Position numbers and translations under genes: made by a program. This document shows, piece by piece, positions 15,111-62,653 of a stretch of DNA of 64,000 bases. How positions within the stretch are numbered: position 1 is the first letter of the stretch; every line of letters begins with the position of its first letter. The notes beneath the pieces are model-generated. The model searched no databases. It was not told where the DNA came from and saw nothing but the letters and a program-made list of their open reading frames with translations. The stretch lies in sequence record NC_135730.1. The stretch is one strand, 5' to 3'. The DNA comes from a phage.

Positions 15111-17500
15111 TCTGCTCTTCCCCCTACCATAAACGGCCCTACCTGGCAAGTGGAATAATTGACGAGCCATCAATCCCACACACTGTACAAATATACATGT
15201 AAAATAGCTATTGCATAACCTTTCATTGTGTGGTAGCAGGGCTATTTTACCCGTTTTCCCTTCCAAAATTGCACGTAATGCCGCTATTGCACAAATTTTA
15301 ACCTGATGCAGATCTTCAATATCTTGTCAACAAATAAAAATTCTTATAAGTCATACACTTACACCAACACAAAAGCGTTTTCTACGTGAAAAATCGAGTA
15401 TAACTATAGCCGCCAGATCTCAGAATTTACGTACGCTCACCATTCTATAGCCTGCTAAGTATTTATTCCAACCATAGAATAATGGAATAGTCAATACCTG
15501 CATAAAATAATTATTCGTTTAAATTGCATAACATAAATCAGCCAGGGTGTCAACATTTTTCGTAAACAGTCCGAAATTATCGCTGTGAATTATCATAAAC
15601 AGAGAAATCTTTAGTCGTCTAATGTTTACTGTACGTTACTATACTGACTGGAATCATTAGATGACTAAGAGAAAGATAAGAAATAATTAACAATACAATT
15701 ATTTTATCTGTAACAATAAGGCAACTATGCAAACGAATGGCATGGCGCGACGGAGTCGCGACATAATATAAAAGCAGTAACCATCACCCCCGTGATAGTT
15801 TGTCTGCAATCTATTAATCAGATCATAGTTGCCTTGTATTTAGTTAATCATGACATAACAAGCAAGGCAACTATAGATCTTCTAATAGTTGCCCTGCTTT
15901 TATATTATGTCATAGAAACACCCGAAGGGGTGACCAAAGGTCACCTGGCATAGCCAGCGAAAGATTATTAACTTGCTAATCGTTATCATGCAAACGAATG
16001 GCATGGCTTATAATTTTTGAGCAAATAGTCTATACGTGAACAGTGAGGCATGCAATAGTAACAATTGTTATTATATCCAGTGTTTAGTATGCCCAGTGTG
16101 TCAAAGGTGTCTAAAGTGTCAGACAAGTTTTTCTCCTCTTTGTCAAGTGCTGCATGAAAAATTTACAATCTGGTATGGTAGCATTTTTGCGGCCCTGTTT
16201 ACATCCAGTTGTGTATGTATAACCCTTGTTGTGTGGGCGTTTAGACGTCTGGACGGTTGGAAGTCTACAGGTCAATATCTAATCTATCGGCTGCTAACTA
16301 TATCCCACACAAATAGTAAGAAATATAATTGTTATATGCGTAAACAGTAACTCATGTTATCAATCCCTGTATGTATCGCCAGTGGTGCGCATAATGGGTA
16401 TTATGTTAAATTGCCCGTAATGATAATGGTTCTCACAATGATATGTATTCTCATTCCCCCACACAAAATAGATTGCAAATGTTGTGCCACTATGTGAACG
16501 GCCTCACCTATTAATTTGCCTCACTGCCTCGATATTTGAGAATTGTTATAAGAATGAGAAGTATTCCCATTTCGTCCGCCTGGCAGCACTCCTGTCGGTC
16601 AGGTCAAAATCGTGGTATAACTGGACCTGTTCAGATATTTCTGGCTGACTCTTCAGGCCTGTGTGGGAAAAGCCGACCCCTCCGGCGGCGGGGAGGGGGT
16701 CAATTAAAAAATTTACGGGGTATATGAAGCGCTCTTCAGGTAAGGCAGGTATTATGGGATGAAACCCTCTTCAGGTAATGATATTTGTGGGTGTGATATT
16801 TGCTGGAAAGCCAGATATGACGGGACTCCCGGCGGGGCAGGGGTAGTACAGACAGGGAAAATATGGAGGATGTGGTTGGGTAAATTGATCAGACAGGTAG
16901 AGTATGGAATATGTTATGAATATGTTAAATATAGAGGTTGAATATCTGTAGGATTTGTGTGTAAAATCAAAGACTTAAGTGGTGTTGTGGTATTTTCTAT
17001 AAATAATTCAAGTTTAATAGGTGATATTTGTCCCTATCTACTTTGTGTGGTAAACAGATTCAGATGAGATTGGTTTACGAGTGTATACATAATATACAAA
17101 TTAAAGATACAAGAAACCCCCCTCCCCCTTCGGCTACCATTCACCTTTTCCTCTGACTGGTACTTAAACACTTATTCAGACTCTTCAGGTTATCACCCAT
17201 ATATCATATGGCAGTGACTGGTGTCCTCCGGCCCCTCTTTCGTCACCCGTCCGCTTCGCCATGCTAATGCCATAGCCAAATGTTCGGTTGTTCACCCTGT
17301 TCACTCAGGTGTATCTCCATACCCCTTCAAACCGAAGAGAACAGAAAACCCGAATTACTCGGTAAAAGAAAAGAGAAGAACTTAATTTTATCAGGATAGG
17401 CAAGAATGTCAAGGCATGACTGCTCACTAAACAAGCAAACAGTCATGTGTGGGAGGTAAGTGATTGTGGTGGTGGGAAATTTAGTTGAAAGATGTGCTAC
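15111..17500. other. 2.4 kb non-coding repeat-rich region at the convergence of the two transcription blocks
   Basis: no credible ORF with RBS; nested inverted repeats 15757-15915, duplicated atgcaaacgaatggcatggc, four ctcttcagg repeats, CCCCTCCCCC motifs. Confidence 0.6.
16672..16705 (-). terminator. candidate minus-strand terminator
   Basis: gacccctcc/ggagggggtc hairpin followed on the minus strand by GGCTTTTCC. Confidence 0.35.
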
Positions 17501-17541
17501 AGGTGCGCTTCCAGCACTTTAGCCGGGCAGCTAATTGTGTG

Positions 17542-17757
17542 TCAGTCCAGCGGTTCATCCTCTACTTCACTGAAATCAATGTTCATGGTCTCTTCCCAAC
17601 CATCGATCTCAGCACAAGAGTGGAGTTCTTTAGGGTTTACTCCCAAAGCCTCAGCAACAGAGTCTATATTTAACACCTCTGGCAGGTATGATTCATCGAA
17701 TTCAAGGTAAATCAGGCCACGAGTGTTGTCAGCTCCACCAAATATTTCTATCTTCAT
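17542..17757 (-). CDS. small acidic protein (family A-like)
   Basis: ATG at 17757 after AGAGGAG RBS; starts MKIEIF; within track ORF 17542-17823. Confidence 0.5.
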   Translation of the reverse strand: MKIEIFGGADNTRGLIYLEFDESYLPEVLNIDSVAEALGVNPKELHSCAEIDGWEETMNIDFSEVEDEPLD

Positions 17758-17877
17758 GAAATCTCCTCTGGAAATGAGAATGTGAACAGGGTTTATATGT
17801 TCCAATGCACTGGAATTATGCACGTTTGCCTCTTCAGGCCATGCTTTAGCATGAGGAACCTGTGTGGGCTCGGTGCT

Positions 17878-18090
17878 TCATAGTCTACCACCTCTGAACT
17901 CTTCGTGCTCAGGCATAATAGAGAACCAGATATCTACGATGTCTTCCCACGTTAGGTCATCAGCCTCAGGATCTACCTGGAGCGAAGATGGAGAATCTTC
18001 AGAATCGAAGTTTTCCTCTTGCACTGGCTCAGTCAAGGGACATATAGTCACTCCTTTGGATGTCTCTTCAGATGCATGTGTGTTTATCAT
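17878..18090 (-). CDS. hypothetical acidic protein
   Basis: ATG at 18090 overlapping the stop of an upstream 29-aa TM peptide (ATGA coupling); within track ORF 17878-18291. Confidence 0.4.
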   Translation of the reverse strand: MINTHASEETSKGVTICPLTEPVQEENFDSEDSPSSLQVDPEADDLTWEDIVDIWFSIMPEHEEFRGGRL

Positions 18091-18176
18091 GTTCCACCCG
18101 TGAGTATTCCGGCAACAGCCACTATGGACGTAATGATCATCAGGATCACCACCAAAACCTCTGACAATGTTTTCAT
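18087..18176 (-). CDS. small hydrophobic peptide (29 aa)
   Basis: MKTLSEVLVVILMIITSIVAVAGILTGGT downstream of a minus-strand TTGACA promoter near 18225-18255. Confidence 0.3.
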   Translation of the reverse strand: MKTLSEVLVVILMIITSIVAVAGILTGGT

Positions 18177-18450
18177 TGTGTATCCCATATTCTCCAAACG
18201 ATGTGTGGATACTATCACTGGAGCGGCAATGTGTCAACAGAAACGCCGCGAGGGTTTGGTTAAAATCCGAGCGTATGGTGATTTGGGTCAAAACGGACGT
18301 GCGTTCTCGCTACGCTCGAAAAAGAGAGTTGTTTGTAGGAAGCTCTTAAACGCTCTGTAAGGAGATTATCTGTCCAAGGTATGCAATCGTGCACCAGATA
18401 AAGAAAAGGACGCCACAGAGCGTCCTAGGTGTCTTAAATTTGATATTTTG

Positions 18451-18750
18451 CTATACCCATGATGGCTTATCAAGGTTGGAGTAGCTGAAAGGTGTCAAAA
18501 GGTGACTGTCAAAATCTCTCAAACTATCCAGATCTTTTTCCTCGTCCTGACACCATCTGTGCCTGCATTTATTGTTGTAGTGCATAGAATGCATGGCGTT
18601 CTGCAACTTAACAGGCACAAGTGATTCCGGAGTAGATAGTATTGTTGGGTATGCTAGAACCACCTCAAACAGTGGAAACACATCGAAACTAAAATCTACC
18701 TCTGCAGAGGTTGATGGCATGTAGGAGTATTTAGCCGTCTTTGTAGACAT
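18451..18750 (-). CDS. hypothetical protein
   Basis: ATG at 18750 after GAGGTGGA RBS. Confidence 0.5.
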   Translation of the reverse strand: MSTKTAKYSYMPSTSAEVDFSFDVFPLFEVVLAYPTILSTPESLVPVKLQNAMHSMHYNNKCRHRWCQDEEKDLDSLRDFDSHLLTPFSYSNLDKPSWV

Positions 18751-18758
18751 AATCCACC

Positions 18759-19085
18759 TCACACAGGTTTGATAATACCTTCACCGAATAACTCTTCATA
18801 TCTAATCTTATCCGGATCCCACTCCTGGATAATTTCGAAGACAATATCCAACCCTGGGATAATCACTTCTCCAGTGTCAAGTTTGGCAAGAACAAAACCA
18901 GAAGGCTGAATGGTTTCCCAGTTGCGACGATTGGAATAGAAGACCTCGAAAATATCACCGACCTTGATCTGTTGATCAAGATGTTCAAGGTTCTCTTTCA
19001 TGTAGACGCAGCGTATTTTTCGTGCAGGCCATAGACCACCTGCATCACGTTCATTCAATTCTTTTACAGTGATCGGTATACCCAT
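18759..19085 (-). CDS. hypothetical protein
   Basis: 108-aa track ORF; GAGGGAG RBS. Confidence 0.6.
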   Translation of the reverse strand: MGIPITVKELNERDAGGLWPARKIRCVYMKENLEHLDQQIKVGDIFEVFYSNRRNWETIQPSGFVLAKLDTGEVIIPGLDIVFEIIQEWDPDKIRYEELFGEGIIKPV

Positions 19086-19104
19086 CTCAAATCTCCCTCA
19101 TAGA

Positions 19105-19135
19105 TAGTAAAAAGAGGGGCTTTGGCCCCTCTTTG
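19105..19135 (-). terminator. rho-independent terminator (hairpin usable on both strands)
   Basis: agaggggc-tttg-gcccctct with T-run on the minus strand. Confidence 0.55.
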
Positions 19136-19138
19136 TCA

Positions 19139-19444
19139 TTATTCTACAGAACGTTTGAACAGAATGTCTGCCTCGGACATGTGTTCAACCTCTTCTTCGA
19201 TTTTAGCTCGACGTTTTTCAGCCTCATAGCGAATATCGAACTCGGTAGCCACCAGAGATTTGATGAATTTAGGAGAATACAGGTGATCCTGCTTCTCAAC
19301 GAGAATGATATCCTTAATGGCATCTTTCAGATCTTTAATCTGAAGTTGGAGTTCTACCAGTTCTTCGATTGTTTTGCGAAGGCGATCACGCTCTGCAGTG
19401 TCAGAAGGAAGAGAGGTGAACAGTTCAACTTTAGATTTAGCCAT
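19139..19444 (-). CDS. hypothetical coiled-coil protein
   Basis: 101-aa track ORF; TAAGGAG RBS. Confidence 0.65.
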   Translation of the reverse strand: MAKSKVELFTSLPSDTAERDRLRKTIEELVELQLQIKDLKDAIKDIILVEKQDHLYSPKFIKSLVATEFDIRYEAEKRRAKIEEEVEHMSEADILFKRSVE

Positions 19445-19472
19445 AGTAAGAGTCTCCTTATGTTGTTTTAAA

Positions 19473-19724
19473 TTAACGTTCTACAAAAATACCGTTCAGT
19501 TCAATAACCAGGAATTTCTGGTCTTCACTATCGTCTCGTGCCAGCACCTCACAGACGTATCGGTCATCCCCATCATCATCGCAGTCAAATACAAGACTGA
19601 GGACTTTATCATGGTAAACCTTCGCCACTACCGCCTCGTAAGTATTGCCGATTGTGAATCCAAGATAATCTCCGATGCATTTGACAACAACATGGTCTCC
19701 AGCATTTAAGTCAATCTTCGTCAT
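19473..19724 (-). CDS. hypothetical acidic protein
   Basis: ATG at 19724 after AAGGAG; within track ORF 19473-19790. Confidence 0.55.
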   Translation of the reverse strand: MTKIDLNAGDHVVVKCIGDYLGFTIGNTYEAVVAKVYHDKVLSLVFDCDDDGDDRYVCEVLARDDSEDQKFLVIELNGIFVER

Positions 19725-19879
19725 TACTGCGCTCCTTGGGTAATAATACTGTATGTAAAACTTTAACCAGAGATGTGAATAACGCCCCAAAACACACCGA
19801 TAGCGCTAAAACAGACAAGGCCATCATTAAAGCTTCAGTAAAATCAGTCATTCCTCACCTCTTGTTAGTCACTATACTA

Positions 19880-20143
19880 TCATTTATCCTTGTCGTCAAG
19901 AACTTTTTTAAATCTTTCAGGGATATCTCCCGTTCTTAGATAGTTCATGACCTCGCAAGGTTCCCACTTGAATTTCTTACAGAGCAGGGCGGCTGAGATT
20001 GTTTCATTGCGAAAAGAAAGGATATTAATATCCCACTCTGAGAACCCCAACTTCCGAAGGGTAGCTACAGAAATCCTCACCGCAACCCAGCAGCAAAAAC
20101 ATGCAACAAACGCCACTGCTACAACCCACATCAGGATGTTCAT
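19880..20143 (-). CDS. hypothetical membrane protein
   Basis: 87-aa track ORF; N-terminal TM ILMWVVAVAFVACFCCWVAV. Confidence 0.55.
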   Translation of the reverse strand: MNILMWVVAVAFVACFCCWVAVRISVATLRKLGFSEWDINILSFRNETISAALLCKKFKWEPCEVMNYLRTGDIPERFKKVLDDKDK

Positions 20144-20232
20144 ATAAGCACCTTACTGAAATACAAGACACAGTGTTAAGGTTACTGACCAGCAAATAAT
20201 TAACAGTGCCGTTGCAACCTTGGCAAGATTTA

Positions 20233-20520
20233 TCATAGTGCCTCTAAGATTTCATATCCTTCGGGTCGGAATACAAGCCACTCCGTGGCTCCGTTTGGTC
20301 GATACGCTTTATACAGAACAACCTGGTCTCGGCACATGCACATGGCTACATAGTTTTCATCCACACCTGCAGCCTGCATTGCATCTTCTTCTCCGGCAAC
20401 TGCTTTGCTTACAACTTCCTTGGTAGGCAGGTGTGCGATCAGCTCGTCACCATCATTAATTCCAAAATGGCCGAGTTCGCCGTTGGTATCTTTAATCTTA
20501 ATCTTAACCAGATCTTTCAT
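20233..20520 (-). CDS. small acidic protein
   Basis: 95-aa track ORF in tightly packed operon. Confidence 0.6.
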   Translation of the reverse strand: MKDLVKIKIKDTNGELGHFGINDGDELIAHLPTKEVVSKAVAGEEDAMQAAGVDENYVAMCMCRDQVVLYKAYRPNGATEWLVFRPEGYEILEAL

Positions 20521-20849
20521 TAGTCTTCCCCCAGGTTCAAAGGTCCTAAGATTTCATATGCCAGATTAGAAGTTACAAGAGGGTCTTCTGCGTCTTTAGT
20601 ATTATACCACCCGTGAATAACCAGAGTCCCACTCTGTTTCATATCTAACTGGAACTGTTCTGCAGTTTCCTCATCCATCTCTAAGATCTCCATAAGGTAC
20701 TTGATGTTAGGAAGGTATGCAGCTGTTACAGTTCCCTCTACCAGACCTTCGGGCCAACCTACATCCGGATGACAAGTAGGAACCAGATTAGTCAGCTTAA
20801 TAGTGTACGCTTTTTCTGCACGAGCCTTCAGTAACGGGTCAATCTTCAT
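20520..20849 (-). CDS. hypothetical acidic protein
   Basis: 109-aa track ORF; stop/start overlap with neighbours. Confidence 0.6.
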   Translation of the reverse strand: MKIDPLLKARAEKAYTIKLTNLVPTCHPDVGWPEGLVEGTVTAAYLPNIKYLMEILEMDEETAEQFQLDMKQSGTLVIHGWYNTKDAEDPLVTSNLAYEILGPLNLGED

Positions 20850-21199
20850 TATTCGTCCTCCTCTTCGGTGCCTGCTTCCAGTAATAAGTTAAGAATATCT
20901 TCTGCACAAGGTTCATAGAACTCTTGGCCTTCATTATCGATGATTTTGTAGTCATCTCCACGAATAATCAGGGGATCACTCTCAAAATTATCGAGACCTT
21001 TAACAACGACAACACGATCGATTGCCATCATTGTAAGAACTTTATCGACATCTTCCTCTGCTACACCATACTGCAGCAGAATGTCTTTGGTAGGAGGAAC
21101 AGCATCCACCACAACGCCGTTACCAAAACCTTCTGGAAGTTTAGCTAAAATATCTTCCGGAACCACATTCACATCAAAACCGGTAATTTCTACTTTCAT
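20849..21199 (-). CDS. small acidic protein (family A-like)
   Basis: 116-aa track ORF; starts MKVEITGFD. Confidence 0.6.
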   Translation of the reverse strand: MKVEITGFDVNVVPEDILAKLPEGFGNGVVVDAVPPTKDILLQYGVAEEDVDKVLTMMAIDRVVVVKGLDNFESDPLIIRGDDYKIIDNEGQEFYEPCAEDILNLLLEAGTEEEDE

Positions 21200-21460
21200 T
21201 TACAGCACCTCTTCGTCAACTACTTCATAAAAATGGCCTGGGATTGCAATAGCGTTCTCACCTTCACCTACAAACACAGTTCCGTCAAGAATCAACATCA
21301 TAAGAATTTCTGTAATATCCTCTTCCGGAACGTTGCCAAAACCTTTAATCAGCTCGTAGGTTGGAATATTTACCTCTAAGATGTCACCATCTTTAGAACG
21401 GAAATCAACACCGTCCTGAATCTCTGCCGTTTCAAGGTTTTTCAATTTAATCTTCATCAA
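21200..21460 (-). CDS. small acidic protein (family A-like)
   Basis: 86-aa track ORF; starts MMKIKL. Confidence 0.6.
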   Translation of the reverse strand: MMKIKLKNLETAEIQDGVDFRSKDGDILEVNIPTYELIKGFGNVPEEDITEILMMLILDGTVFVGEGENAIAIPGHFYEVVDEEVL

Positions 21461-21536
21461 TCGGTCTCCTGTCTTGTTAAGATGAAGGTATTATTTCACA
21501 CAGGGTTGGCGTTGTCAACACCTGTGTGCAAGAAAA

Positions 21537-21932
21537 TTACTGAAACAGTGCGGATAAATTACCTTCTGGTGGGAACTTATCTGCCAAAAACGGTGTTAGC
21601 ACAGTAGCCTTCTGAAGATCTGGGGTCCACTCGTTGTTCAGAACATCCCAGTAGTACGCAATGTTGCTGTGTGGGTGCCGCATTACGAACTTTTTCCCTT
21701 CGTAGTCATCTGAAACCTCTACAGAAGAAATAACAACAGAATCTTCAAGGGTTTCTTCATAGAAAGATCCGCCTTCAAATTTCCAACGAGATGCAAGAGC
21801 CCCTGCCTTGAACGCTGCAGATAACGGACTGTCGGCAAGAACATACATTTCTTGCACTCTGTCGCTGCGATCTTTGCTTCTTACGTTGTATACAGTATCT
21901 GAGCTATACTCAACACGGTATAGGCTTACCAT
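21537..21932 (-). CDS. hypothetical protein, paralog family B
   Basis: 131 aa; shares HP(D/H)S...YW(N/D)...(T/E)WTP with 23739-24137. Confidence 0.65.
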   Translation of the reverse strand: MVSLYRVEYSSDTVYNVRSKDRSDRVQEMYVLADSPLSAAFKAGALASRWKFEGGSFYEETLEDSVVISSVEVSDDYEGKKFVMRHPHSNIAYYWDVLNNEWTPDLQKATVLTPFLADKFPPEGNLSALFQ

Positions 21933-22264
21933 TACCGCACCTCCTCAATAACTTCCACATCTGAACCTACCACAAATGCAAAAGGACAGGTTTCATGAAA
22001 GACATCCGGATCGCCGCCAAGCTTGCTAACAATCTCTCCACCACTAATAAACACAAGCTCACCGATATTCATCAGATTGCTGAAATAGTACCCATAATGA
22101 TTAAAGAATGCAGCAGGGTCAGGTAGACTAGTAGCCTCAAGCACTACATCAGTTGAGGTTACTTTCTTATCATAACCTCTCGCCTTCTGAGATGCAAGAT
22201 CTGCAGAATCTTCAGGCGACCGGAGATGCACAGGAATTGTTTCACCAATAAAGCGTACTTTCAT
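21932..22264 (-). CDS. small acidic protein (family A-like)
   Basis: ATG at 22264 (MKVRFIG); C-terminal FAFVVGSDVEVIEE resembles family A tails. Confidence 0.55.
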   Translation of the reverse strand: MKVRFIGETIPVHLRSPEDSADLASQKARGYDKKVTSTDVVLEATSLPDPAAFFNHYGYYFSNLMNIGELVFISGGEIVSKLGGDPDVFHETCPFAFVVGSDVEVIEEVR

Positions 22265-22268
22265 ATTA

Positions 22269-22532
22269 TCACCCAACAACCATAGCTTCAAAAGGGGTCA
22301 TGAACGAATAAACGGCATCATCATCTGCTTCAGGGAATGCTCCCAAAGACTTCATGTCTGAGCCTTTGACAAATACAAGGTTTTGATCAAAAGCTTCTTG
22401 GGGGTCAATCCGATACATATTTCGTAGAATATCGCCTACCTCCTCATCAAGAGGTGAGTATGCTGTGCACGTTTTTCCGATCAAGCTTTGAGAATCAGGG
22501 TATCCACCTGAAGTTTTAAAATAAACAATCAT
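22269..22532 (-). CDS. small acidic protein (family A-like)
   Basis: 87-aa track ORF; VFVKGSDMKSLGA motif. Confidence 0.6.
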   Translation of the reverse strand: MIVYFKTSGGYPDSQSLIGKTCTAYSPLDEEVGDILRNMYRIDPQEAFDQNLVFVKGSDMKSLGAFPEADDDAVYSFMTPFEAMVVG

Positions 22533-22623
22533 ATAGTATCACCTATGGTAAGAGATTGGGATTCCTTTCCCACAAATAATTACAAACCTTCCTTGTCGAG
22601 GAAGTATGCTAATCCAAGCAGGA

Positions 22624-22893
22624 TTATTCCTCTACAATCTCATACACATCCGGAGTTACAATCAACTCTTCTCCGTTACCTGGTGCAACAAACACCACCA
22701 TTCCTTCAGGTGTGTGCTTTTTAGCCATCTCGATAACATCTTCTCGCAGAGCTGGCTCCATCAGATCAAAACCTTCACCCAGGGCATCACGAACCACCTT
22801 CATATAGTCAACTGGTTGTGCTTCGACAATCATGCCTTCAACCAGTCCACAGTTTTTGTCTGCCAGCTCAGTTTTGAATAATTTAATTTTCAT
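22624..22893 (-). CDS. small acidic protein (family A-like)
   Basis: 89-aa track ORF; MKIKLF start, YEIVEE end. Confidence 0.6.
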   Translation of the reverse strand: MKIKLFKTELADKNCGLVEGMIVEAQPVDYMKVVRDALGEGFDLMEPALREDVIEMAKKHTPEGMVVFVAPGNGEELIVTPDVYEIVEE

Positions 22894-23030
22894 TTAGAGG
22901 TCTCCTCAATTATTTGATATTAATAGCCGTAACCTAACACATTAACTACAACTGCGATTGCAAACATAATTTCAAAGCATGCAATCTCTACATTTGGGAC
23001 TAGTTTCTTAATCACGCCCATTGTAGCACC

Positions 23031-23348
23031 TCATTCTCCAAAGTCAATCTTTACTTTGCCTTTCCCCTTACCTTTCTTTCCACCGCATTTAGCCAGCTGA
23101 CGTGCTGCAACATCTACCATACGGTCAGTTGCCTCGTAAGCATCACCACCTTTAGCCTTGGCAATAACTTCTTTTCCAGAATTGTCAAAAATGAGCGCCA
23201 TAACTTCCTGGTGATCATTTTCAACTTTTACACTCACACGTGCATAGTTGGCAGAGGGGTGCAAACGCTCCAGCTTAGACATTTTGTGGGAAATGAAAGA
23301 CACCATACCTTCAGTGATTTCTACGTTGCCAGTGATTTCAATTTGCAT
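23031..23348 (-). CDS. hpf: ribosome hibernation-promoting factor (HPF/RaiA family) homolog with Lys/Gly-rich C-terminal tail
   Basis: MQIEITGNVEITEGM...KLERL...VKVEN...ARQLAK parallels E. coli HPF MQLNITGNNVEITEAL...KLEQY...LKVEK...ARQLTK as recalled. Confidence 0.65.
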   Translation of the reverse strand: MQIEITGNVEITEGMVSFISHKMSKLERLHPSANYARVSVKVENDHQEVMALIFDNSGKEVIAKAKGGDAYEATDRMVDVAARQLAKCGGKKGKGKGKVKIDFGE

Positions 23349-23430
23349 AACGTGTTCCTTTTAAAGAAGAGGGAACCAAACCCTCTTTGAAAACAATGAT
23401 ACTAAATCTGAAGCGTTGTGTCAACAGTTT

Positions 23431-23721
23431 TTACAGCTTGTTGTCGATAGTTTTTAAAATATCCACAGCAAGATCTGCCATTTTTCGAACATACTCTGCA
23501 AACTCAACAGGATCCTTGATCAAAGAATTCACAGGGTCGTACCCTAGAGCGTTTAAAATGGCTGCAGCATCTACAACCTTCTCATCATTTGCGAAGATCT
23601 CTCCGTCAAACTTGTAGGTCCATTTTGAGTCAACCTTAGCAGAGCAGGGTTTGTCCATGCTTGTTACACCATCGTCTTTAAACTCTCCTGCGTTATCAAT
23701 ATTTAGAATTAAATCCATCAT
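23431..23721 (-). CDS. hypothetical acidic protein
   Basis: 96-aa track ORF. Confidence 0.6.
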   Translation of the reverse strand: MMDLILNIDNAGEFKDDGVTSMDKPCSAKVDSKWTYKFDGEIFANDEKVVDAAAILNALGYDPVNSLIKDPVEFAEYVRKMADLAVDILKTIDNKL

Positions 23722-23738
23722 GGTGACACCTCACTGTT

Positions 23739-24137
23739 TCAGTTTAGCTTTTCTTCAACAACCCCATAACTTGGGGCAGAGTCAAGAGCTTTCTGGTTTA
23801 AAAGTGGCGTAGCAGAATCTGCAAACGGTGTCCAAGTTTTTGTTCTGGCATTCCAGTAATGCTTCACTCTGGAATCTGGATGCACTATAACAAAAACTTT
23901 TTCACTTGTCAACACATTAATTTCTTCTACACCCTTGCTGATAATTTCTCCGTCATAGCCCCCAGTCTGGTATCCTTCGTACCAGGTTCTTGCATAGGCA
24001 TAGCCAGCCTGCCAGCATGCAGCCTCCTCCGAGGTGGAGACTACGTAGAAGTCTTTCTCAAATTCTGGAATACGCCCTTGCTTTACGCTCCAAGCCCCGC
24101 GAATTTTCATTGTAACTTTAAACAGTTTATTTTTCAC
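23739..24137 (-). CDS. hypothetical protein, paralog family B
   Basis: 132 aa; paralog of 21537-21932. Confidence 0.65.
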   Translation of the reverse strand: MKNKLFKVTMKIRGAWSVKQGRIPEFEKDFYVVSTSEEAACWQAGYAYARTWYEGYQTGGYDGEIISKGVEEINVLTSEKVFVIVHPDSRVKHYWNARTKTWTPFADSATPLLNQKALDSAPSYGVVEEKLN

Positions 24138-24149
24138 AACGGTTACCCA

Positions 24150-24404
24150 TCACAGCTCTACAATATCTGCATCTGACCCTACCCCAAAGGCATAATAGGA
24201 CTCTTCCCCGAAATAGTATTCAGGTGCACCAGCGGTGATCAGGTCTGATCCCAAGATAAACACCACGTTGTGGCCTACATAACTGTGATGTTGCCGCACA
24301 GGATCATCCCACGGCAACCCTTCAAAGTATACCGCAGGAACGACCTTTCCATTCAGGAAGGATTGTCCCAAGTAGACGTTAGAATCAAGAATTTTAACCT
24401 TCAT
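24150..24404 (-). CDS. small acidic protein, paralog family A
   Basis: MKVKILDSNVYLGQ...GSDLITAGAPE...DADIVEL. Confidence 0.65.
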   Translation of the reverse strand: MKVKILDSNVYLGQSFLNGKVVPAVYFEGLPWDDPVRQHHSYVGHNVVFILGSDLITAGAPEYYFGEESYYAFGVGSDADIVEL

Positions 24405-24621
24405 GATCGTCCTCCACTACCTCTACATCCTCACCTAGGGCAAAGTTATAGGTCCACTGACTGTCAAAGCATTCCTGAGATGCACCAGCGGCAATAAGAT
24501 CTGCTCCTTTTATTTTTAAAAGGTCAGGGTAATCTTCGTTAGGGACAGCAGTAAACACTTTTCCTACTAAAGGCTCCTGACCAATATAGAAGCTTGAATC
24601 TAAAACTTTAACTTTCATCAA
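24394..24621 (-). CDS. small acidic protein, paralog family A
   Basis: MKVKVLDSSFYIGQ...GADLIAAGAS...DVEVVED. Confidence 0.65.
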   Translation of the reverse strand: MMKVKVLDSSFYIGQEPLVGKVFTAVPNEDYPDLLKIKGADLIAAGASQECFDSQWTYNFALGEDVEVVEDDHEG

Positions 24622-24905
24622 CGGTCTCCATCGGGTGGTTGTGGGACGTAAACACTGTTACGAATATCGTCAGCAGTGTAGTAATAAGTGGTTCCAACCC
24701 TGTCTCGGGCTGCAATGTACTCTGCTATACCAATAAGTGCCATTGATTTGGTGGCGTATCTTCCCAACTCGTTAGCTCCCCAGTAGAGTTTAGACCAGTA
24801 GGGAATAAGACCGAACAAATATACCTTTTGACGAACTTCCCAGTAAGTGCCTTTTCCGACAAGTTTAAACTCTACTTCACTACTGTTAATCTTTTTCATT
24901 ATCAA
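24618..24905 (-). CDS. hypothetical protein
   Basis: 95-aa track ORF. Confidence 0.6.
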   Translation of the reverse strand: MIMKKINSSEVEFKLVGKGTYWEVRQKVYLFGLIPYWSKLYWGANELGRYATKSMALIGIAEYIAARDRVGTTYYYTADDIRNSVYVPQPPDGDR

Positions 24906-25198
24906 TCTCCCTCTACCGTGGTCGGATTGTCAGTAAGAAATTGAGCATTGGCTGGAGGCACGCCTGACATTTTCCACACAACCATAAGTTTGTAACCAGG
25001 CACTCTATTAAGTGCAGATCGAGTAGAGTTTGTGCACGTATACTTTCGCTTTCCAAACCCGTTCTCCATCATAATCCAGTACCCAGTATCTTTGTCACCA
25101 GGTATCGGTAGACCACCTTCATCAACCCACTGAATGGACCACGGCACGATGGCTACAGCTTTATATTTAAACTTTTTAAACCACTCAAAAAGTTTCAT
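24902..25198 (-). CDS. hypothetical protein
   Basis: 98-aa track ORF. Confidence 0.6.
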   Translation of the reverse strand: MKLFEWFKKFKYKAVAIVPWSIQWVDEGGLPIPGDKDTGYWIMMENGFGKRKYTCTNSTRSALNRVPGYKLMVVWKMSGVPPANAQFLTDNPTTVEGD

Positions 25199-25383
25199 AA
25201 TTCAGCCTCGCTTGGCAACTCTTCTACCTTAACATGCCGAAAAGTGTTACCGTAATGGTTGATCCATGACATCAGCTCGCTTTCTTGCTCTTCCTCTGGG
25301 ATGAACTCTCGAATGCTGACAAGTTTTAAGAAAACCCAATCACAATCTGCACCCATTCTACCAGACAGGCAATAGTGCTTCAT
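25195..25383 (-). CDS. hypothetical protein
   Basis: 62-aa track ORF, overlapping stop/start. Confidence 0.5.
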   Translation of the reverse strand: MKHYCLSGRMGADCDWVFLKLVSIREFIPEEEQESELMSWINHYGNTFRHVKVEELPSEAEL

Positions 25384-25401
25384 AAAACCCTCCTGCCTGG
25401 T

Positions 25402-25596
25402 TTAGAATATTGCTTCTTCCATTGCGCCTGAGAGCAACAAAGAGGTGATCTGGCTAACATTCATCTCAGACTCTACTTCCTCCCCTTTGAAAGGTTCGCG
25501 GCAGAATAGGACTGTTTCAGGACTTTTACTTCGAACAATATAATACAAATCATTCAATGTGTTGTAGTAATAAGTGTTAAAACGTAAGTTTTTCAT
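25402..25596 (-). CDS. hypothetical protein
   Basis: 64-aa track ORF. Confidence 0.5.
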   Translation of the reverse strand: MKNLRFNTYYYNTLNDLYYIVRSKSPETVLFCREPFKGEEVESEMNVSQITSLLLSGAMEEAIF

Positions 25597-25880
25597 TTTC
25601 TAGTCCTCTTCTTAGATTTTTGGGGAGAAACGCTTTCTGCAATACGAGACAGACGTTCTTCTGAAGCCTTACCTACTCCAGGTTTTTTGAGTGGATTATC
25701 TTTATGACCACAATCCAACTGGATATTGGATACCTCTCCAACTTTGTAAGTCAATTCTAGCAAAAGGTTGTCGTCCTTGTCAAATGTTTTTACGATAAAT
25801 TTTTTATCGTTCTCCTGAACTTCATATCTGGTACCTGCAGTATACAGCATGGTGCCATCAGCATAGGATATCCAGATCAT
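25593..25880 (-). CDS. hypothetical protein with basic C-terminus
   Basis: 95-aa track ORF. Confidence 0.55.
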   Translation of the reverse strand: MIWISYADGTMLYTAGTRYEVQENDKKFIVKTFDKDDNLLLELTYKVGEVSNIQLDCGHKDNPLKKPGVGKASEERLSRIAESVSPQKSKKRTRK

Positions 25881-26224
25881 TGAGCCTCCTTTTGCTGCAA
25901 CAGCATTAACTCTTTGTTAGAGATCTTTACTGCTGTTTTTATTGTTCCATCTTCACGAAACCACGACCAGAACTCTACAGTGTCACCACTATCAAGTAAA
26001 GCATGCCCATGGTAAAAATCTTTGTCCTTAGACAGTTTCTCATCTATATCTGCATCAACACATTCGTGATCCATAGCATTTTGCCTGAACGCATCGGTTA
26101 TGCCAATGCACGCCTTGCTCTCAAGACTGGTATATCCGATATCTTTTAATTCAGTTTCCCAAGTCCAGTACCCTATAAAAGCTAAAACAGCTACCCACAG
26201 TAATAACGTTTTAATCTTTGGCAT
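25877..26224 (-). CDS. hypothetical exported/membrane-anchored protein
   Basis: 115 aa; N-terminal hydrophobic LLLWVAVLAFIGYW. Confidence 0.55.
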   Translation of the reverse strand: MPKIKTLLLWVAVLAFIGYWTWETELKDIGYTSLESKACIGITDAFRQNAMDHECVDADIDEKLSKDKDFYHGHALLDSGDTVEFWSWFREDGTIKTAVKISNKELMLLQQKEAQ

Positions 26225-26286
26225 TCTCTCTACCTCTTTCTTAGTTTATTTCACTATGGCACATCCTTTGTGCCATATCTCAACTA

Positions 26287-26757
26287 CTACTTAAATAGTA
26301 GTTCAAAATAGTGCAAAATTAACAGAAGTTGAACTACACCTAGTGCAACGGCGAGTATGTTAATCTTAGAATCGAAAAACTTCTTAACTTTTACTCTAAA
26401 AGGTTCCTTAATGTCCTTTACGATCCTATCTATAGATGACCTCATATCTCTGATTACCATCCTGAACATTAAAGACGGATGCTCCCCCATCTCTGTAACG
26501 GAATCGAAAACATACTCTCTTCGGTCATAAGGGCCGCCAGCTCTGCGTATTAACCTCTCCACAGAGACCTCGAACGTCACACCTGTAACGTAATCATCTA
26601 TAACAAGTCGTGACGGGTCTTTACCTTTACTATCAAGAGGTATCAAAGTTATCTTTCCAGATTTTGTTAAAATTTCCCCTTTTTCAAGCAAGGTGTACCA
26701 ATGCTCTCTGCCAAGACTGTTGAGGCACGTTTTTACATATTTAACAAACATCGTCAC
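26287..26757 (-). CDS. hypothetical protein with C-terminal TM anchor
   Basis: 156 aa; C-terminal ILAVALGVVQLLLILHYF. Confidence 0.55.
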   Translation of the reverse strand: MTMFVKYVKTCLNSLGREHWYTLLEKGEILTKSGKITLIPLDSKGKDPSRLVIDDYVTGVTFEVSVERLIRRAGGPYDRREYVFDSVTEMGEHPSLMFRMVIRDMRSSIDRIVKDIKEPFRVKVKKFFDSKINILAVALGVVQLLLILHYFELLFK

Positions 26758-26939
26758 CCCTCATCGCACGTCTGATATAACCACTCTATAAAATCTTGAT
26801 ACCATTCGCCCTCTGAGCGCTCCGTAGGCCAATAATCTTCACCCTCTCGTGCATTAAAATCTGAGTATTCAACTTTCCACTCCTTTACCAGCTCGTGGAG
26901 AAGGTTTTCAGCCTGCTCTAAAGATTTATTTTTTACCAT
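26754..26939 (-). CDS. hypothetical acidic protein
   Basis: ATG at 26939 after AAAAAGGAGA; track ORF starts at upstream TTG. Confidence 0.5.
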   Translation of the reverse strand: MVKNKSLEQAENLLHELVKEWKVEYSDFNAREGEDYWPTERSEGEWYQDFIEWLYQTCDEG

Positions 26940-27022
26940 TGCTGTCTCCTTTTTCAAGATAGTTATACATCAGAACTGCACCACCTAAGATGGCTACCAG
27001 TAACAATATCCCAGATAGCATC

Positions 27023-27175
27023 TCAATAAACATGGCTTGAAACACTGGAAGGTCTCCCTAAATTAACGCACCATTTTAAATACATGCTCTTTTCCCATAA
27101 AGGTGCCTGGCTAAGATCTGCGTAGAACGCAATCTCTTTAAGAACAGTATAGATAGTTTTAGGTGCGGTCTCCAT
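27023..27175 (-). CDS. hypothetical small protein
   Basis: ATG at 27175 (METAPKT) after AGGAAGGAGAG. Confidence 0.35.
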   Translation of the reverse strand: METAPKTIYTVLKEIAFYADLSQAPLWEKSMYLKWCVNLGRPSSVSSHVY

Positions 27176-27386
27176 CCCTACTCTCCTTCCTGATATTCTT
27201 GTAGTAATCAACTAGGCACATTATTACGATGAAGATAACAACAGGCCAAAAAGGTGCAGCAGTGATGATGGTGATAAAATCATCAAACTTCACCCTTCGT
27301 CTGGACACGATGCATACACCTGTCAAGAATACCGCTGTTATAACGGACATTACCAGGTAACCTATTAGCACAACATTTATACTCAT
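27159..27386 (-). CDS. small two-TM membrane protein (holin-like topology)
   Basis: 75 aa; two hydrophobic helices and charged C-terminus KNIRKESRDGDRT. Confidence 0.45.
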   Translation of the reverse strand: MSINVVLIGYLVMSVITAVFLTGVCIVSRRRVKFDDFITIITAAPFWPVVIFIVIMCLVDYYKNIRKESRDGDRT

Positions 27387-27416
27387 TGGTCCTCCCTTTG
27401 TAGGTTAAATTGTATA

Positions 27417-27950
27417 CTACAAATGGTCGCTGAGGGTGTCAAGAAAATTATCCCGTTCTTTCTCAGAGTTTTCATGTGTGTAGCTGAAAAACATATCGAG
27501 AATAACCTTATTGATATATTCCAGCTCCTCTGTGTTCAGATGCTTAGCAGGATCTACAATGACATCCCAAATATCATACAGACCACACTCATGATACCCA
27601 TAACGCCACTCAATTGTCAAGCTGAGCGGCAAATCTTTACCTTCACAAACAACCTTCCATCTACATATGTTGGTATCTGGTCGTACCTGTGCACGGTACA
27701 CCTGCACAAAATCCAATTTGAATTTGAGGTACTCGTCATACAATTTAAGCACAAAGCTCTCGATTTGTGGAGACACTTTTGCAGCAAACTGTGCGTATTT
27801 GTACTTGCACTGGATGATCTTTCTGCGTTTTGCAGTTAAATTTTTTGCCGCCAGTTGTTCTTCAGTGTATCTCCACCTACGATCAACAAACGCAACAGGG
27901 TCTTTGTCCCCATAGAGGTCTTCCCAGTTAATCAGAAGCATACCTGTCAC
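27417..27950 (-). CDS. hypothetical protein
   Basis: 177-aa track ORF. Confidence 0.65.
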   Translation of the reverse strand: MTGMLLINWEDLYGDKDPVAFVDRRWRYTEEQLAAKNLTAKRRKIIQCKYKYAQFAAKVSPQIESFVLKLYDEYLKFKLDFVQVYRAQVRPDTNICRWKVVCEGKDLPLSLTIEWRYGYHECGLYDIWDVIVDPAKHLNTEELEYINKVILDMFFSYTHENSEKERDNFLDTLSDHL

Positions 27951-28180
27951 TCCTCCACAACTTCAAGGCCTTTACCGCCTCGCTCTGGCAGATTACTTAA
28001 AGATAGGTAATACATATAATCAGGAGAGATCCTGCCAGACTCTGCACCTGCAGCTAGTAAATCCTTCCCTTTAACCAGGACAACATTCTCGTTTGCAGAT
28101 AGCCGTTTTGCTTCCACAATTTTACCGACACAGTCAACCAAGGAAGGGTACCCTAAATCTGTAAGAAATTTAACTTTCAT
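27947..28180 (-). CDS. small acidic protein, paralog family A
   Basis: MKVKFLTDLGY...GKDLLAAGAESG...GLEVVEE. Confidence 0.65.
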   Translation of the reverse strand: MKVKFLTDLGYPSLVDCVGKIVEAKRLSANENVVLVKGKDLLAAGAESGRISPDYMYYLSLSNLPERGGKGLEVVEE

Positions 28181-28217
28181 GCTACCTCCTACCTACCGTC
28201 CCTGGTAAGATAAATTA

Positions 28218-28616
28218 TTACTGAACAGAGCGCGGTGCTGGGAAGGATAACTCTTCTAAAGAGAAGATTTCATTTCCTACCACCCAAGTTGCTGGGTCAT
28301 CTGGATCAACAGGTTGGATAATCATTACCTCATCCGCCTCGCACACACGTTTCCCACCCATAGTAGCGTCAGCCACTAACATACGCGGCTCTTCAGAAAT
28401 GCACAGGTAGCCACCTCGGCCCACTGTTCCTTCCACGGGATCCTGCCCTTTGACCACAATGAATACCTTCTCTCCTGTGGAGATATTACTTTTCACACTA
28501 ACAGTTTGACCAACTTTAGATGTACCGATCTTGGTGGCTTCAAACATTAAATCTCGAATTACTGTTGCATAGTTGCCGGACACTTTCTTACCTTCTTTAG
28601 TAATCTCAATCTTCAT
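28218..28616 (-). CDS. hypothetical protein (MKIEIT start, family A-like N-terminus)
   Basis: 132-aa track ORF. Confidence 0.6.
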   Translation of the reverse strand: MKIEITKEGKKVSGNYATVIRDLMFEATKIGTSKVGQTVSVKSNISTGEKVFIVVKGQDPVEGTVGRGGYLCISEEPRMLVADATMGGKRVCEADEVMIIQPVDPDDPATWVVGNEIFSLEELSFPAPRSVQ

Positions 28617-59994: not shown

Positions 59995-60069
59995 GCCCTG
60001 TTAGCTTAGTGGATAAAGCAGCGGCCTTCTAAGCCGTTGACACTGGTTCGAGTCCAGTACGGGGTGCCA
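59995..60069 (+). tRNA. tRNA-Arg (anticodon UCU)
   Basis: manual cloverleaf; anticodon loop CTTCTAA; T-loop GGTTCGAGTCC; CCA present. Confidence 0.7.
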
Positions 60070-60073
60070 AATT

Positions 60074-60160
60074 GGGGAGTTATCCCGTAGAGGTAGCGGT
60101 GTAGACTGTAAATCTATTGTCATTGCGACTCGGGTGGTTCGACTCCACCACTCCCCACCA
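60074..60160 (+). tRNA. tRNA-Tyr (anticodon GUA), type II
   Basis: acceptor GGGGAGT/ACTCCCC; loop CTGTAAA; long variable arm; T-loop TTCGACT. Confidence 0.7.
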
Positions 60161-60274
60161 AATTTATATTTTTAGATGCATAAATAATACAGATAATGGC
60201 ATTGATATTTATCGTCGTTTATACTAGTCACTAACTGCTCGAAAATCAGTGTCATTATCAGTATAATTTATAAA

Positions 60275-60365
60275 GGAGGGTAGGGAGCAATGGTGCTCAA
60301 GCGGTCTTGAAAACCGTCCCGTTGAGGATGACTCGATGATGGTTCGATTCCATTACTCTCCGCCA
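60275..60365 (+). tRNA. tRNA-Ser (anticodon UGA), type II
   Basis: anticodon arm CGGTCTTGAAAACCG matches E. coli tRNA-Ser as recalled; long variable arm. Confidence 0.75.
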
Positions 60366-60463
60366 CATTGTTGACCTTGTAATTAAGCGAAAGCCGGAAG
60401 CAGAACCGGATTATCAAATGTTACAGTCGTCATCGCCGACTAGCAACATGGTCAACATACTGA

Positions 60464-60562
60464 GCTAGGTAAGCCCTTTGGCAAGGGCGAGGATTTTTAA
60501 TCCTGAAAATAGACGAGGTAGTCGTTGAATACATAGGTGGTTCGATTCCATCGCCTAGCACC
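60464..60562 (+). tRNA. atypical type-II-length tRNA-like gene, anticodon ambiguous (UUU or UAA)
   Basis: good acceptor, D and T arms; anticodon stem only 4 bp; about 29-nt variable region. Confidence 0.4.
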
Positions 60563-60567
60563 TTTTT

Positions 60568-60643
60568 GCTGATGTAGCACAATCGGTAGTGCAATTGATT
60601 TGTAATCAATAGGTTGTAGGTTCAAGTCCTGCCATCAGCACCA
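60568..60643 (+). tRNA. tRNA-Thr (anticodon UGU)
   Basis: all four stems pair cleanly; loop TTTGTAA. Confidence 0.8.
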
Positions 60644-60644
60644 A

Positions 60645-60719
60645 GGCCCTGTAGCTGGAAGGTTCAAGCAAGCGACTCATAATCGCCAGACGGTGGTTCA
60701 ATTCCACCCAGGGCCACCA
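60645..60719 (+). tRNA. tRNA with CAU anticodon (Met or lysidine-Ile)
   Basis: acceptor GGCCCTG/CAGGGCC; loop CTCATAA; T-stem GGTGG/CCACC. Confidence 0.7.
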
Positions 60720-60730
60720 AATAGTAAATA

Positions 60731-60807
60731 CTCCGCGTAGCTCAGCTTGGTAGAGCGCCTGATTTGGGATCAGGAGGTCGAGTGTTCGAATCACTCCGTG
60801 GAGACCA
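60731..60807 (+). tRNA. tRNA-Pro (anticodon UGG)
   Basis: C1:G72 first pair typical of bacterial tRNA-Pro; loop TTTGGGA; clean cloverleaf. Confidence 0.8.
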
Positions 60808-61911: not shown

Positions 61912-62336
61912 TGTCTAAGATTTACGGACCGTGTTCTGAAAAGCAGAAGATGATCCTCGAAAACGATGCAGATATTTTGGTAATCGGCGGTGCCGCAGGG
62001 TCTGGCAAGTCGTTCCTCTTGCAGTTGATGCCGCTTAAAATTATTGATGACCCCCACAGCTCTGTGGTTATGTTCCGAAGAACAACCCCACAGTTGGAAG
62101 GTGAGGGTGGGCTATGGCCTAAAGCAGTAGCTATTTATAGTGATCTGCCTGAAAACATTAAGCCAAAGTTCAGAGAGAAGGATCATAAGTTCATTTTCCC
62201 ACGGTTTGATCCGAGCACTGGCAAGTGGGATAGAAGCAAAAAGGGAGCTGTTGTAAAATACTGCCACATGGAGTATGTCCAAGATAAGCTTAACCATCAA
62301 GGTCTTGAGTACACCATGGTTTGCTTCGATGAGGGT
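61911..62336 (+). CDS. terminase large subunit, exon 1 (ATPase domain)
   Basis: Walker A GGAAGSGKS, Walker B MVCFDE; ends at intron 5' splice site. Confidence 0.8.
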
Positions 62337-62653
62337 TAATTTGTAGCTCTCGTAAAACCTCCCTAATTGCGGGGAAATCTTTACTATTAATACCACCAAC
62401 CTGTCATGGTAACATGATAGAGGCTTCGAAGAGAGATCGAAGGTATGGTAACAGTGTGTTAATTTAGATAATCCGCAGCGAAGCATCCGAGAGGATGAAC
62501 GTTCAACGACTAGTCGAAAGACGTAGAATCAAGCGATTCGAAACGGGAGGGTAAGCGGTTGTTGTCGCTTATAAGATATAGTCTGGTCTGCATGGAGACA
62601 TGCAGCTGCCTGAAAAATGGCGGGGCAAGACTAGCGACCTTGCCCGAACATAG
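62337..62653 (+). mobile_element. ORF-less group I intron in terminase large subunit gene (3' boundary +/- 3 nt)
   Basis: all four core elements in order: P AAUUGCGGGGAAA (about 62364), Q AAUCCGCAGC (about 62470), R GUUCAACGACUAG (about 62501), S AAGAUAUAGUCU (about 62573). Confidence 0.75.

Follow-up and report, generated by a model that had tools for sequence, protein, structure and literature searches.

What are the many small genes at one end of a long gene block in an rV5-like phage, and how are they related to each other? About two thirds of the genes of such phages are without a function, and the phages themselves are candidates for therapy and biocontrol. We analyzed a stretch of 64,000 nucleotides from phage sequence record NC_135730.1 (the window) and therein the span from position 17,542 to 28,616, which an initial annotation, made from the sequence alone, had described as a single array of ten small, acidic and rapidly diverging relatives of a kind typical of host-interaction or anti-defence factors. 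We find three separate protein families instead, i.e., A with five, B with five and C with two members, and published transposon data in which four of these twelve paralogs matter in one clinical Escherichia coli strain. Taken as a whole, we consider it probable that A, B and C are three old, duplicated families of accessory factors directed against host-strain-specific barriers.

The 11-kb span belongs to a Vequintavirus (rV5-like) genome and shares 98.6% identity with Escherichia phages Murica and EdH4 and about 115 other Vequintavirus genomes. It forms the promoter-distal end of a long minus-strand gene block of about 17.5 to 56 kb, recognized by strand composition and open reading frames. 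Between 17.5 and 29.2 kb lie 34 small minus-strand genes (referred to as the block in the following), which correspond to Murica gp130–gp167 and are nearly all annotated as "hypothetical". Gene starts were chosen to agree with the Murica annotation, and genes are named by their lower window coordinate, e.g., g24394 for 24394..24618 (Table 1). The open reading frames listed in the initial annotation were all found, on the minus strand and at the same positions, and its description of tightly packed genes with overlapping stops and starts holds, with 12 of the 33 junctions in the block overlapping or abutting. Block genes are also more acidic in their products than the other genes in the window (p = 0.001).

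We assessed relatedness for all 561 pairs of block proteins by comparing each Smith–Waterman score with 500 shuffles. Three proteins, g24150, g24394 and g27947, had been singled out as clear paralogs with the motif MKVK.LD...G.DL.AAGA...EVVE. They are indeed related, with the motif visible in the alignment and z scores of 22 for g24150/g24394 and 13.7 for g24394/g27947. The count of three had to be corrected to five, as g21932 reached z of about 8 to both and g22269 scored 5–6 to three members. Family B was connected by the pairs g20849/g21200 (z = 7.6), g20233/g20849 (6.4), g21200/g22624 (5.0) and g20520/g20849 (4.6). For the two proteins of family C, g21537 and g23739, kinship was evident from z = 17 at 28% identity over the full length, and the proposed pattern HP(D/H)S..YW..(T/E)WTP is visible in their alignment; only the common length of 131 amino acids needed correction, to 131 and 132. 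For g24150/g24394, g24394/g27947 and g21537/g23739 the observed score was reached by none of the 500 shuffles. Within the families, paralogs share 22–47% identity.

Because profiles that contain their own targets give circular scores, we used leave-one-out profiles, i.e., each paralog was dropped together with its orthologs and the profile was rebuilt. Every member of family A was recovered, with expectation values (E) from 1e-8 to 3e-20. All five members of family B were found as well, at E of 1.9e-8 to 9e-3, with the best decoy at E of at least 0.78. Moreover, a broad A profile built without g21932 recovered this protein at E = 9.5e-7, as the sole match among 901 six-frame segments of the window. 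Similarity by composition only, a concern that the initial annotation had raised itself, or open reading frames that are not genes, could be suspected with proteins that are short and acidic and share a start and a tail of low information. Such an artefact is ruled out by the shuffles and the leave-one-out recovery of every member, as well as by ratios of non-synonymous to synonymous substitution (dN/dS) of 0.03–0.22 at synonymous divergence (dS) of up to 1.3; homologs in unrelated phages and confident structure models also speak against it. We regard its probability as practically nil.

Seven further genes had been added to the array for sharing the start MK(V/I)(K/E)(I/L/F) and an acidic tail. 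The start motif is enriched, being present in 9 of 34 block genes versus 1 of 84 elsewhere (p = 5e-5), and seven of the nine carriers are A or B members, while g17542 and g28218 share the motif alone. Five of the seven added genes, however, form the distinct family B in the leave-one-out profiles. One family of ten was rejected on the basis of profile comparison with hhalign, cross-profile searches and a fold search. One may still ask if A and B could be one superfamily in which ten "MK.." genes descend from one ancestor with a shared beta-barrel core, B carrying a helical insert like g22269 and g21932 and having lost the G.DLI.AGA helix. Strand order is equal in the models of both families, and the two helices of B are found where g22269 and g21932 have their insertions. 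The common start motif is enriched among block genes, and hhalign aligns the first 32 columns (MKVKL...G.vv.A) at E = 0.0012. Yet these 32 columns are all that hhalign aligns, at a probability of 1.6% when only the paralogs were used and of 19% when the alignments were enriched. The A profile finds no B member and the B profile no A member, no cross-family pair exceeds z = 3, and when the B model was compared with viral models by Foldseek, no A member was returned. We therefore hold a common origin of A and B to be doubtful. The best matches in this Foldseek search were uncharacterised proteins of Vibrio phage Vc1, ECP32 and CM1.

Family A is a module of about 70 amino acids, acidic, with the signature MKVKxL-GGY-GK.V.A-G.(D/E)LI.AGA-F-Y.F-E.EVVE. 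In contrast to the earlier statement that no known fold is recognisable, structure prediction gave an SH3-like small beta-barrel for this family. The AlphaFold2 model of g24394 has a predicted local distance difference test score (pLDDT) of 93, and the fold is hence predicted with high confidence. In g22269 a helical insertion follows strand 2, and g21932 carries the longest insertion among the A members. The model of the family B protein g21200 (pLDDT 84) shows an alpha/beta arrangement of about 85 amino acids in the order beta1-beta2-two helices-beta3-5. Of 38 diverse A members 97% carry a net negative charge, as do all B members. Charge was considered with DNA mimics of the Ocr/Arn type in mind, in which a strongly acidic surface imitates the phosphate backbone.

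The SH3-like small beta-barrels as a fold class, to which A may belong by prediction, include SH3 domains, the KOW domains of Spt5/NusG, PsaE and the retroviral integrase C-terminal domain. That family A binds nucleic acid, as a KOW/SH3-like regulator of transcription or translation complexes, we consider very improbable. In searches for KOW (PF00467) or NusG/Spt5 relatives, no Pfam family was found at E ≤ 0.01 among the 38 A members and none at E ≤ 1 among the window genes. Neither A, B nor C has a match in Pfam, nor do any of the 38 A members at E ≤ 0.01. NCBIfam gave one spurious match among these 38 proteins. In sequence profiles of the PDB, the best E values were 0.011 (A), 1.2 (B) and 0.74 (C), all for short partial stretches. 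Judged from these searches, the missing Pfam and PDB matches argue against membership in those known anti-defence families, such as Ocr, Arn, Tad, Gad, Acb or anti-CRISPR proteins, that are held in these libraries. PADLOC, which covers defence systems only, had no match for A, B or C.

Among phage protein groups, the function-less PHROG 5009 matched g24394 (E = 1.7e-38), g27947 (8.3e-36) and g24150 (3.7e-32), and g22269 weakly (1.2e-4); its profile had no match to g21932. PHROG 7379 matched both C proteins over 131 of 131 positions (g21537, E = 2.1e-66; g23739, E = 4.3e-74). For g21932, g22269 and every B member there are PHROGs of their own, each limited to one genus. These groups come without function, fold or context, and neither the relatedness of the paralogs nor the order of the cassettes nor the wider distribution described in the following can be read from them.

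Read in the direction of transcription, the 34 genes follow the order ---A----------AAC--BAACBBBB-------, where letters mark family members and dashes the other genes. The sequence A-A-C occurs twice, as g24394-g24150-g23739 (cassette 1) and g22269-g21932-g21537 (cassette 2). When family labels were permuted, two A-A-C were matched in 111 of 10^6 permutations, and a run of four B genes in 616 of 2x10^5. The doubled A-A-C and the B run suggest that the array was built by tandem duplication, giving the B genes and the A pairs, and that a segment of three genes was duplicated as well.

Recombination between tandem copies was seen directly in a natural hybrid. A 133-kb relative and a few other assemblies from the Sequence Read Archive (SRA) carry one gene of 70 amino acids in place of g24394 and g24150. 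Identity to g24394 is 96.4% over the first 139 nucleotides of this gene, and identity to g24150 is 98.6% over its last 72 nucleotides. The switch point lies within a shared 11-mer, CCGCTGGTGCA, which comprises the codons of the most conserved family motif (AGA) and occurs exactly twice in the window versus 0.02 times expected.

The term "rapidly diverging" did not survive comparison with OX460980.1, the most divergent sequenced Vequintavirus. All 34 block genes are collinear there, and family counts of five A, five B and two C genes equal those in the window. Median protein identity was 94.5% for the block and 95.6% for 78 other genes (p = 0.14), and median dN/dS was 0.079 and 0.067, respectively (p = 0.32); the values for all twelve paralogs fell into the range given above. 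The three core A genes are less conserved (79–86%) at dS of 0.75–1.33. Such high dS points to older alleles or mosaic exchange and not to relaxed or positive selection. The most divergent block gene is g25402, with 68% identity. Moreover, the tandem A pair g24394/g24150 is intact in 115 of 117 phage records, and hybrids of the two were seen only in a few SRA assemblies. The paralogs are kept by purifying selection at fixed copy number. Rapid diversification or a gene accordion is ruled out by constant copy number together with identity and dN/dS typical of the genome. The gene accordions of poxvirus K3L amplification and T4 dmd-tifA segmental amplification, which concern host-range or counter-defence genes, resemble the block in tandem duplication and recombination between copies. 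Their copies, however, are recent, near-identical and variable in number, whereas the paralogs described here have low mutual identity, a fixed number and are under purifying selection.

Family A is more widespread than its companions. In an exhaustive profile search of 1.84 billion representative proteins it formed 45 clusters at 50% identity, mostly of proteins that have 65–85 amino acids and share its signature. A few longer relatives, among them P0048, P0052 and P0076, hold two to three copies of the module in one chain, and the other parts of these chains match no Pfam family. With tblastn, the core gene g24394 and families B and C were confined to genomes of Vequintavirus size; by these sequence matches, family B is almost confined to rV5-like phages. 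Divergent A members extend beyond them into T4-like, T1-like and lambdoid phages. The Krischvirus (T4-like) KFS-EC has three adjacent A copies and two marginal ones within 3.4 kb, and Krischvirus phages carry three to five clustered copies. One copy each is found in the Moonvirus (T4-like) Merlin, a Citrobacter phage, between gene 32 and frd, in Tlsvirus LL5 in the left-end early region, and in lambdoid phages and prophages among the small genes between antiterminator Q and holin. Iodobacter phage PhiPLPE carries a family A gene as well. In every lineage the A gene sits in a run of small accessory genes. The recurring tandem modules, i.e., the neighbours in KFS-EC and the repeats in P0048, P0052 and P0076, would fit an action as multimers.

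The isolated copy g27947 is 48% identical to the lambdoid (prophage) protein P0031 and at most 36% to its own paralogs. This argues for exchange between lineages or a very old split and against a recent duplication in place; at least for this copy, horizontal exchange with lambdoid phages seems to have taken place. An A gene is also present in PLSDB entry CP057073.1 (E. coli, 137,565 bp), which is filed as a non-mobilisable plasmid and is probably a phage genome.

Phenotypes are available from a preprint on HIDEN-SEQ, in which phage Bas54 was subjected to saturating transposon mutagenesis (10.1101/2025.11.20.689424). Bas54 is phage MaxBurger (MZ501093.1), and we mapped its gene tags to window genes by blastp at 98–100% identity. 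For E. coli K-12, sheet S2 of Extended Data Table 8 lists every block gene as "non-essential" or "intermediate" (10.1101/2025.11.20.689424), and these published data show the block genes to be dispensable in this host. The intermediates include bas54_0151, bas54_0152 and bas54_0153, with saturation of 0.69–0.73 (10.1101/2025.11.20.689424). In sheet S7, where the uropathogenic isolate CFE311 is set against K-12 BW25113, 27 genes are significant (10.1101/2025.11.20.689424). By the same published data, all three genes of cassette 2 (g22269, g21932 and g21537) and the second C gene, g23739, are important in CFE311 (Table 1). These four paralogs are depleted in this one clinical strain and the other eight are not. 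The log2 fold change was −0.30 to +0.98 for the other A genes (bas54_0158, bas54_0159 and bas54_0166) and about 0 for four B genes in a row (bas54_0146–0149), all not significant. The paralogs with CFE311 depletion are not discussed in the main text of the preprint (10.1101/2025.11.20.689424). A further sheet, which precedes S7 and is labelled CFE303, has numbers identical to the CFE311 sheet for every gene compared; this is likely a file duplication, and the sheet is unusable.

Could family C alone account for the cassette 2 phenotype, with depletion of bas54_0152 and bas54_0151 being a polar or translational-coupling effect on the downstream bas54_0150 and family A being left with no phenotype of its own? 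The genes g22269 and g21932 are 4 nucleotides apart, g21932 and g21537 overlap by one, both C genes are depleted but the A genes of cassette 1 are not, and the gene upstream, bas54_0153, shows a partial, non-significant drop of −2.78. Insertions in bas54_0141, located 8 nucleotides upstream of bas54_0140, and in bas54_0158 and bas54_0159, upstream of bas54_0157, were harmless, however, although the respective genes downstream show depletion. Polarity is thus no general property of this transposon, and we regard an exclusive role of family C as unlikely.

The preprint followed up two genes, bas54_0063 and bas54_0140, and showed that the phage requires both of them to overcome DS-28, a predicted defence system of CFE311 (10.1101/2025.11.20.689424). 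The ortholog of bas54_0140 is g18451, which lies within the span under study and, like the four paralogs, can be spared in K-12 but shows depletion in CFE311. Both phages are of the same genus, and bas54_0140 lies in the same block. However, neither bas54_0140 nor bas54_0063 has sequence similarity to families A, B or C. The host-interaction role suggested at the outset is thus supported, with a block that is dispensable in K-12, four paralogs depleted in CFE311 and an ortholog of an anti-DS-28 gene among their neighbours.

How would the block be expressed? According to the rV5 genome paper, its genes are part of a transcription unit, "genes 82-163", shared with nucleotide-metabolism and replication genes, and sigma-70-type promoters occur throughout the rV5 genome (PMC3606486); paralogs or duplication are not mentioned there. 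In a consensus scan we found several minus-strand promoters of the TTGACA type, two of them in intergenic gaps (Table 1), as well as the two annotated terminators near 18.4 and 19.1 kb. Promoters and the location of the genes suggest early or middle expression.

In the explanation we favour, the families would have arisen by tandem and segmental duplication, as suggested by the doubled A-A-C and the four B genes in a row. The block is the promoter-distal end of a long minus-strand unit that also carries DNA-metabolism genes and sigma-70-type promoters, and A, B and C would be acidic, protein-binding accessory factors made from promoters of the host RNA polymerase. We think it probable that every paralog is directed at its own strain-specific barrier, most likely an immune system, and that A and C proteins from one cassette cooperate. 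As a more specific, tentative proposal, A-A-C might be a three-protein counter-defence cassette based on an SH3-like phage domain not described before. A complex of g22269, g21932 and g21537 would then disable a barrier in CFE311, cassette 1 would be a diverged duplicate with another target, and the A genes of T4-like, T1-like and lambdoid phages, whether single or clustered, would be portable forms of this binding module.

Several points weigh against the favoured explanation. Three A and four B members had no phenotype in either strain tested. The CFE311 phenotype of the paralogs comes from a supplementary table of a preprint and from transposon insertions, and with the tight coupling of cassette 2, polarity or lost translational coupling onto bas54_0150 is possible. 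Stable copy number and low dN/dS are not a classic arms-race signature. Finally, the CFE311 phenotype could reflect dependency on a host factor instead of immunity.

The latter point leads to host adaptation as an alternative to anti-defence, where no immune system would take part and the cassette proteins would adjust a host function in which K-12 and CFE311 differ, e.g., transcription, translation, the envelope or metabolism. A homolog of a ribosome hibernation factor is encoded in the block, the block is part of a DNA-metabolism transcription unit, and purifying selection at fixed copy number fits a housekeeping-like accessory role. Insertion counts of bas54_0150 to bas54_0152 are already below those of their neighbours in K-12, where bas54_0151 to bas54_0153 are classed as intermediate, and conditionally essential genes may exploit host-specific resources (10.1101/2025.11.20.689424). 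On the other hand, a counter-defence function of the neighbouring bas54_0140 has been demonstrated in CFE311, A genes reside in classic accessory or moron regions of unrelated phages, and E. coli strains vary far more in immunity than in core physiology, as is generally known and also noted in the preprint (10.1101/2025.11.20.689424). Host adaptation is hence possible, but we think it rather unlikely.

Returning to accessory factors against strain-specific barriers, the closest parallels are the hyperplastic regions of T4-type phages (nrdC.1–nrdC.11 and the gene 32-frd interval) and the "morons" between Q and lysis genes of lambdoid phages, i.e., dense runs of small genes with overlaps, not needed under laboratory conditions, some of which have proved to act in counter-defence. 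T4 nrdC.1 is a reported counter-defence gene (10.1101/2025.11.20.689424). A genes occupy such regions in KFS-EC, Merlin and the lambdoid phage MagusPhagus. In the block, by contrast, 12 of 34 genes fall into three internal paralog families with a repeated A-A-C, which we did not find described for the T4-type or lambdoid regions in the papers we read.

Database entries and PHROG assignments for these genes existed already, and so did public transposon data. We did not find described the family structure, the A fold, the A-A-C repeat, the distribution across lineages or the link between paralogs and CFE311. Family A is a widespread, uncurated protein family and would belong to the phage accessory genes that set host range or counter defence. 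With this analysis, a run of "hypothetical proteins" becomes three defined families with fold predictions for two of them, a repeated cassette and a host-specific phenotype. A function found for A would annotate many T4-like, T1-like, lambdoid and rV5-like genomes.

Table 1. Features of the window. Families as defined in the text; orthologs refer to phage Bas54 and log2 fold changes to strain CFE311 versus K-12, with adjusted p as shown in the source; aa, amino acids; nt, nucleotides.
Feature	Coordinates	Strand	Length	Family	Description	Bas54 ortholog	CFE311 log2 fold change (adjusted p)
g27947	27947..28180	minus	77 aa	A	isolated copy	bas54_0166	
g24394	24394..24618	minus	74 aa	A	first gene of A-A-C cassette 1	bas54_0159	
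g24150	24150..24404	minus	84 aa	A	second in cassette 1; 11-nt overlap with g24394	bas54_0158	
g23739	23739..24137	minus	132 aa	C	third in cassette 1	bas54_0157	−2.14 (0)
g22624	22624..22893	minus	89 aa	B	leave-one-out E = 1.5e-3	bas54_0153	−2.78 (not significant)
g22269	22269..22532	minus	87 aa	A	first in cassette 2; leave-one-out E = 1.2e-8	bas54_0152	−7.16 (0)
g21932	21932..22264	minus	110 aa	A	second in cassette 2	bas54_0151	−6.17 (0)
g21537	21537..21932	minus	131 aa	C	third in cassette 2	bas54_0150	−6.77 (0)
g21200	21200..21457	minus	85 aa	B			
g20849	20849..21199	minus	116 aa	B	net charge −21; leave-one-out E = 1.9e-8		
g20520	20520..20849	minus	109 aa	B	weakest B; leave-one-out E = 9e-3, best decoy 0.78		
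g20233	20233..20520	minus	95 aa	B	leave-one-out E = 2e-5		
g18451	18451..18750	minus	99 aa		singleton, no paralog; PHROG 12072	bas54_0140 (98%)	
g23031	23031..23348	minus			ribosome hibernation factor (RaiA/HPF) homolog between the two cassettes; PF02482, E = 1.6e-12		
CCGCTGGTGCA in g24394	24481..24491	minus			crossover site		
CCGCTGGTGCA in g24150	24225..24235	minus			partner crossover site		
sigma-70-like promoter	21490..21518	minus			TTGACA-17-AATAAT, TG extended; gap between cassette 2 and B run		
sigma-70-like promoter	23396..23424	minus			TTGACA-17-TATCAT; gap upstream of HPF gene		
g19473	19473–19724	minus	83 aa		small gene with homologs in other phage lineages		
six genes, g24902 to g26287	24902–26757	minus			non-paralog genes		
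region between divergent gene blocks	15700–17540		about 1.8 kb		no convincing open reading frames		
inverted repeat	15760–15777 / 15894–15911		18 nt		perfect		
direct repeat	15727–15746 / 15988–16007		20 nt		perfect		
tRNA cluster	59995–60807	plus			seven calls		
group I catalytic intron	62327–62605	plus			RF00028, 84 bits, E = 6e-20		

Among the neighbours of the paralogs, the HPF homolog g23031 is non-essential in the Bas54 transposon data. EdH4 gp214, which corresponds to g19880 and encodes a small membrane protein without paralog, was deleted by Cas13a editing, and the phage was viable (PMC9712115). The CRISPRi-ART and Hachiman papers also use EdH4 and report nothing on the block. The T1-like phage LL5 (gp10 region, E = 8e-7) and the lambdoid MagusPhagus carry homologs of g19473, which makes it another small gene common to unrelated phage lineages; the family B model matched the CM1 ortholog of g19473 weakly in structure, with a template modeling score of 0.52, which is not convincing. 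The genes g24902, g25195, g25402, g25593, g25877 and g26287 lack orthologs in Bas54/MaxBurger, and part of them is absent from L006, a relative from the SRA, which indicates a natural presence/absence polymorphism.

Among the GenBank records with 98% identity over the whole block are 18 "Campylobacter phage" entries of the MG0656xx series (e.g., MG065635.1) with Campylobacter jejuni as host. The assigned host seems mistaken, or contamination may be involved.

The region between the divergent gene blocks contains the motif ATAGTTGCC(T/C)TG or its complement four times within 15711–15902, in both orientations. It has no Rfam match at E ≤ 0.1. The corresponding region of about 2 kb in Bas54, between bas54_0134 and bas54_0135, tolerates no transposon insertions (10.1101/2025.11.20.689424). 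It could be an origin or a regulatory hub.

At the other end of the window, six of the seven calls in the tRNA cluster are Arg-tct, Tyr-gta, Ser-tga, Thr-tgt, Met-cat and Pro-tgg. The seventh, an ARAGORN call at 60464–60562, is odd, being 99 nucleotides long with a four-base anticodon (atcc) and without Rfam confirmation.

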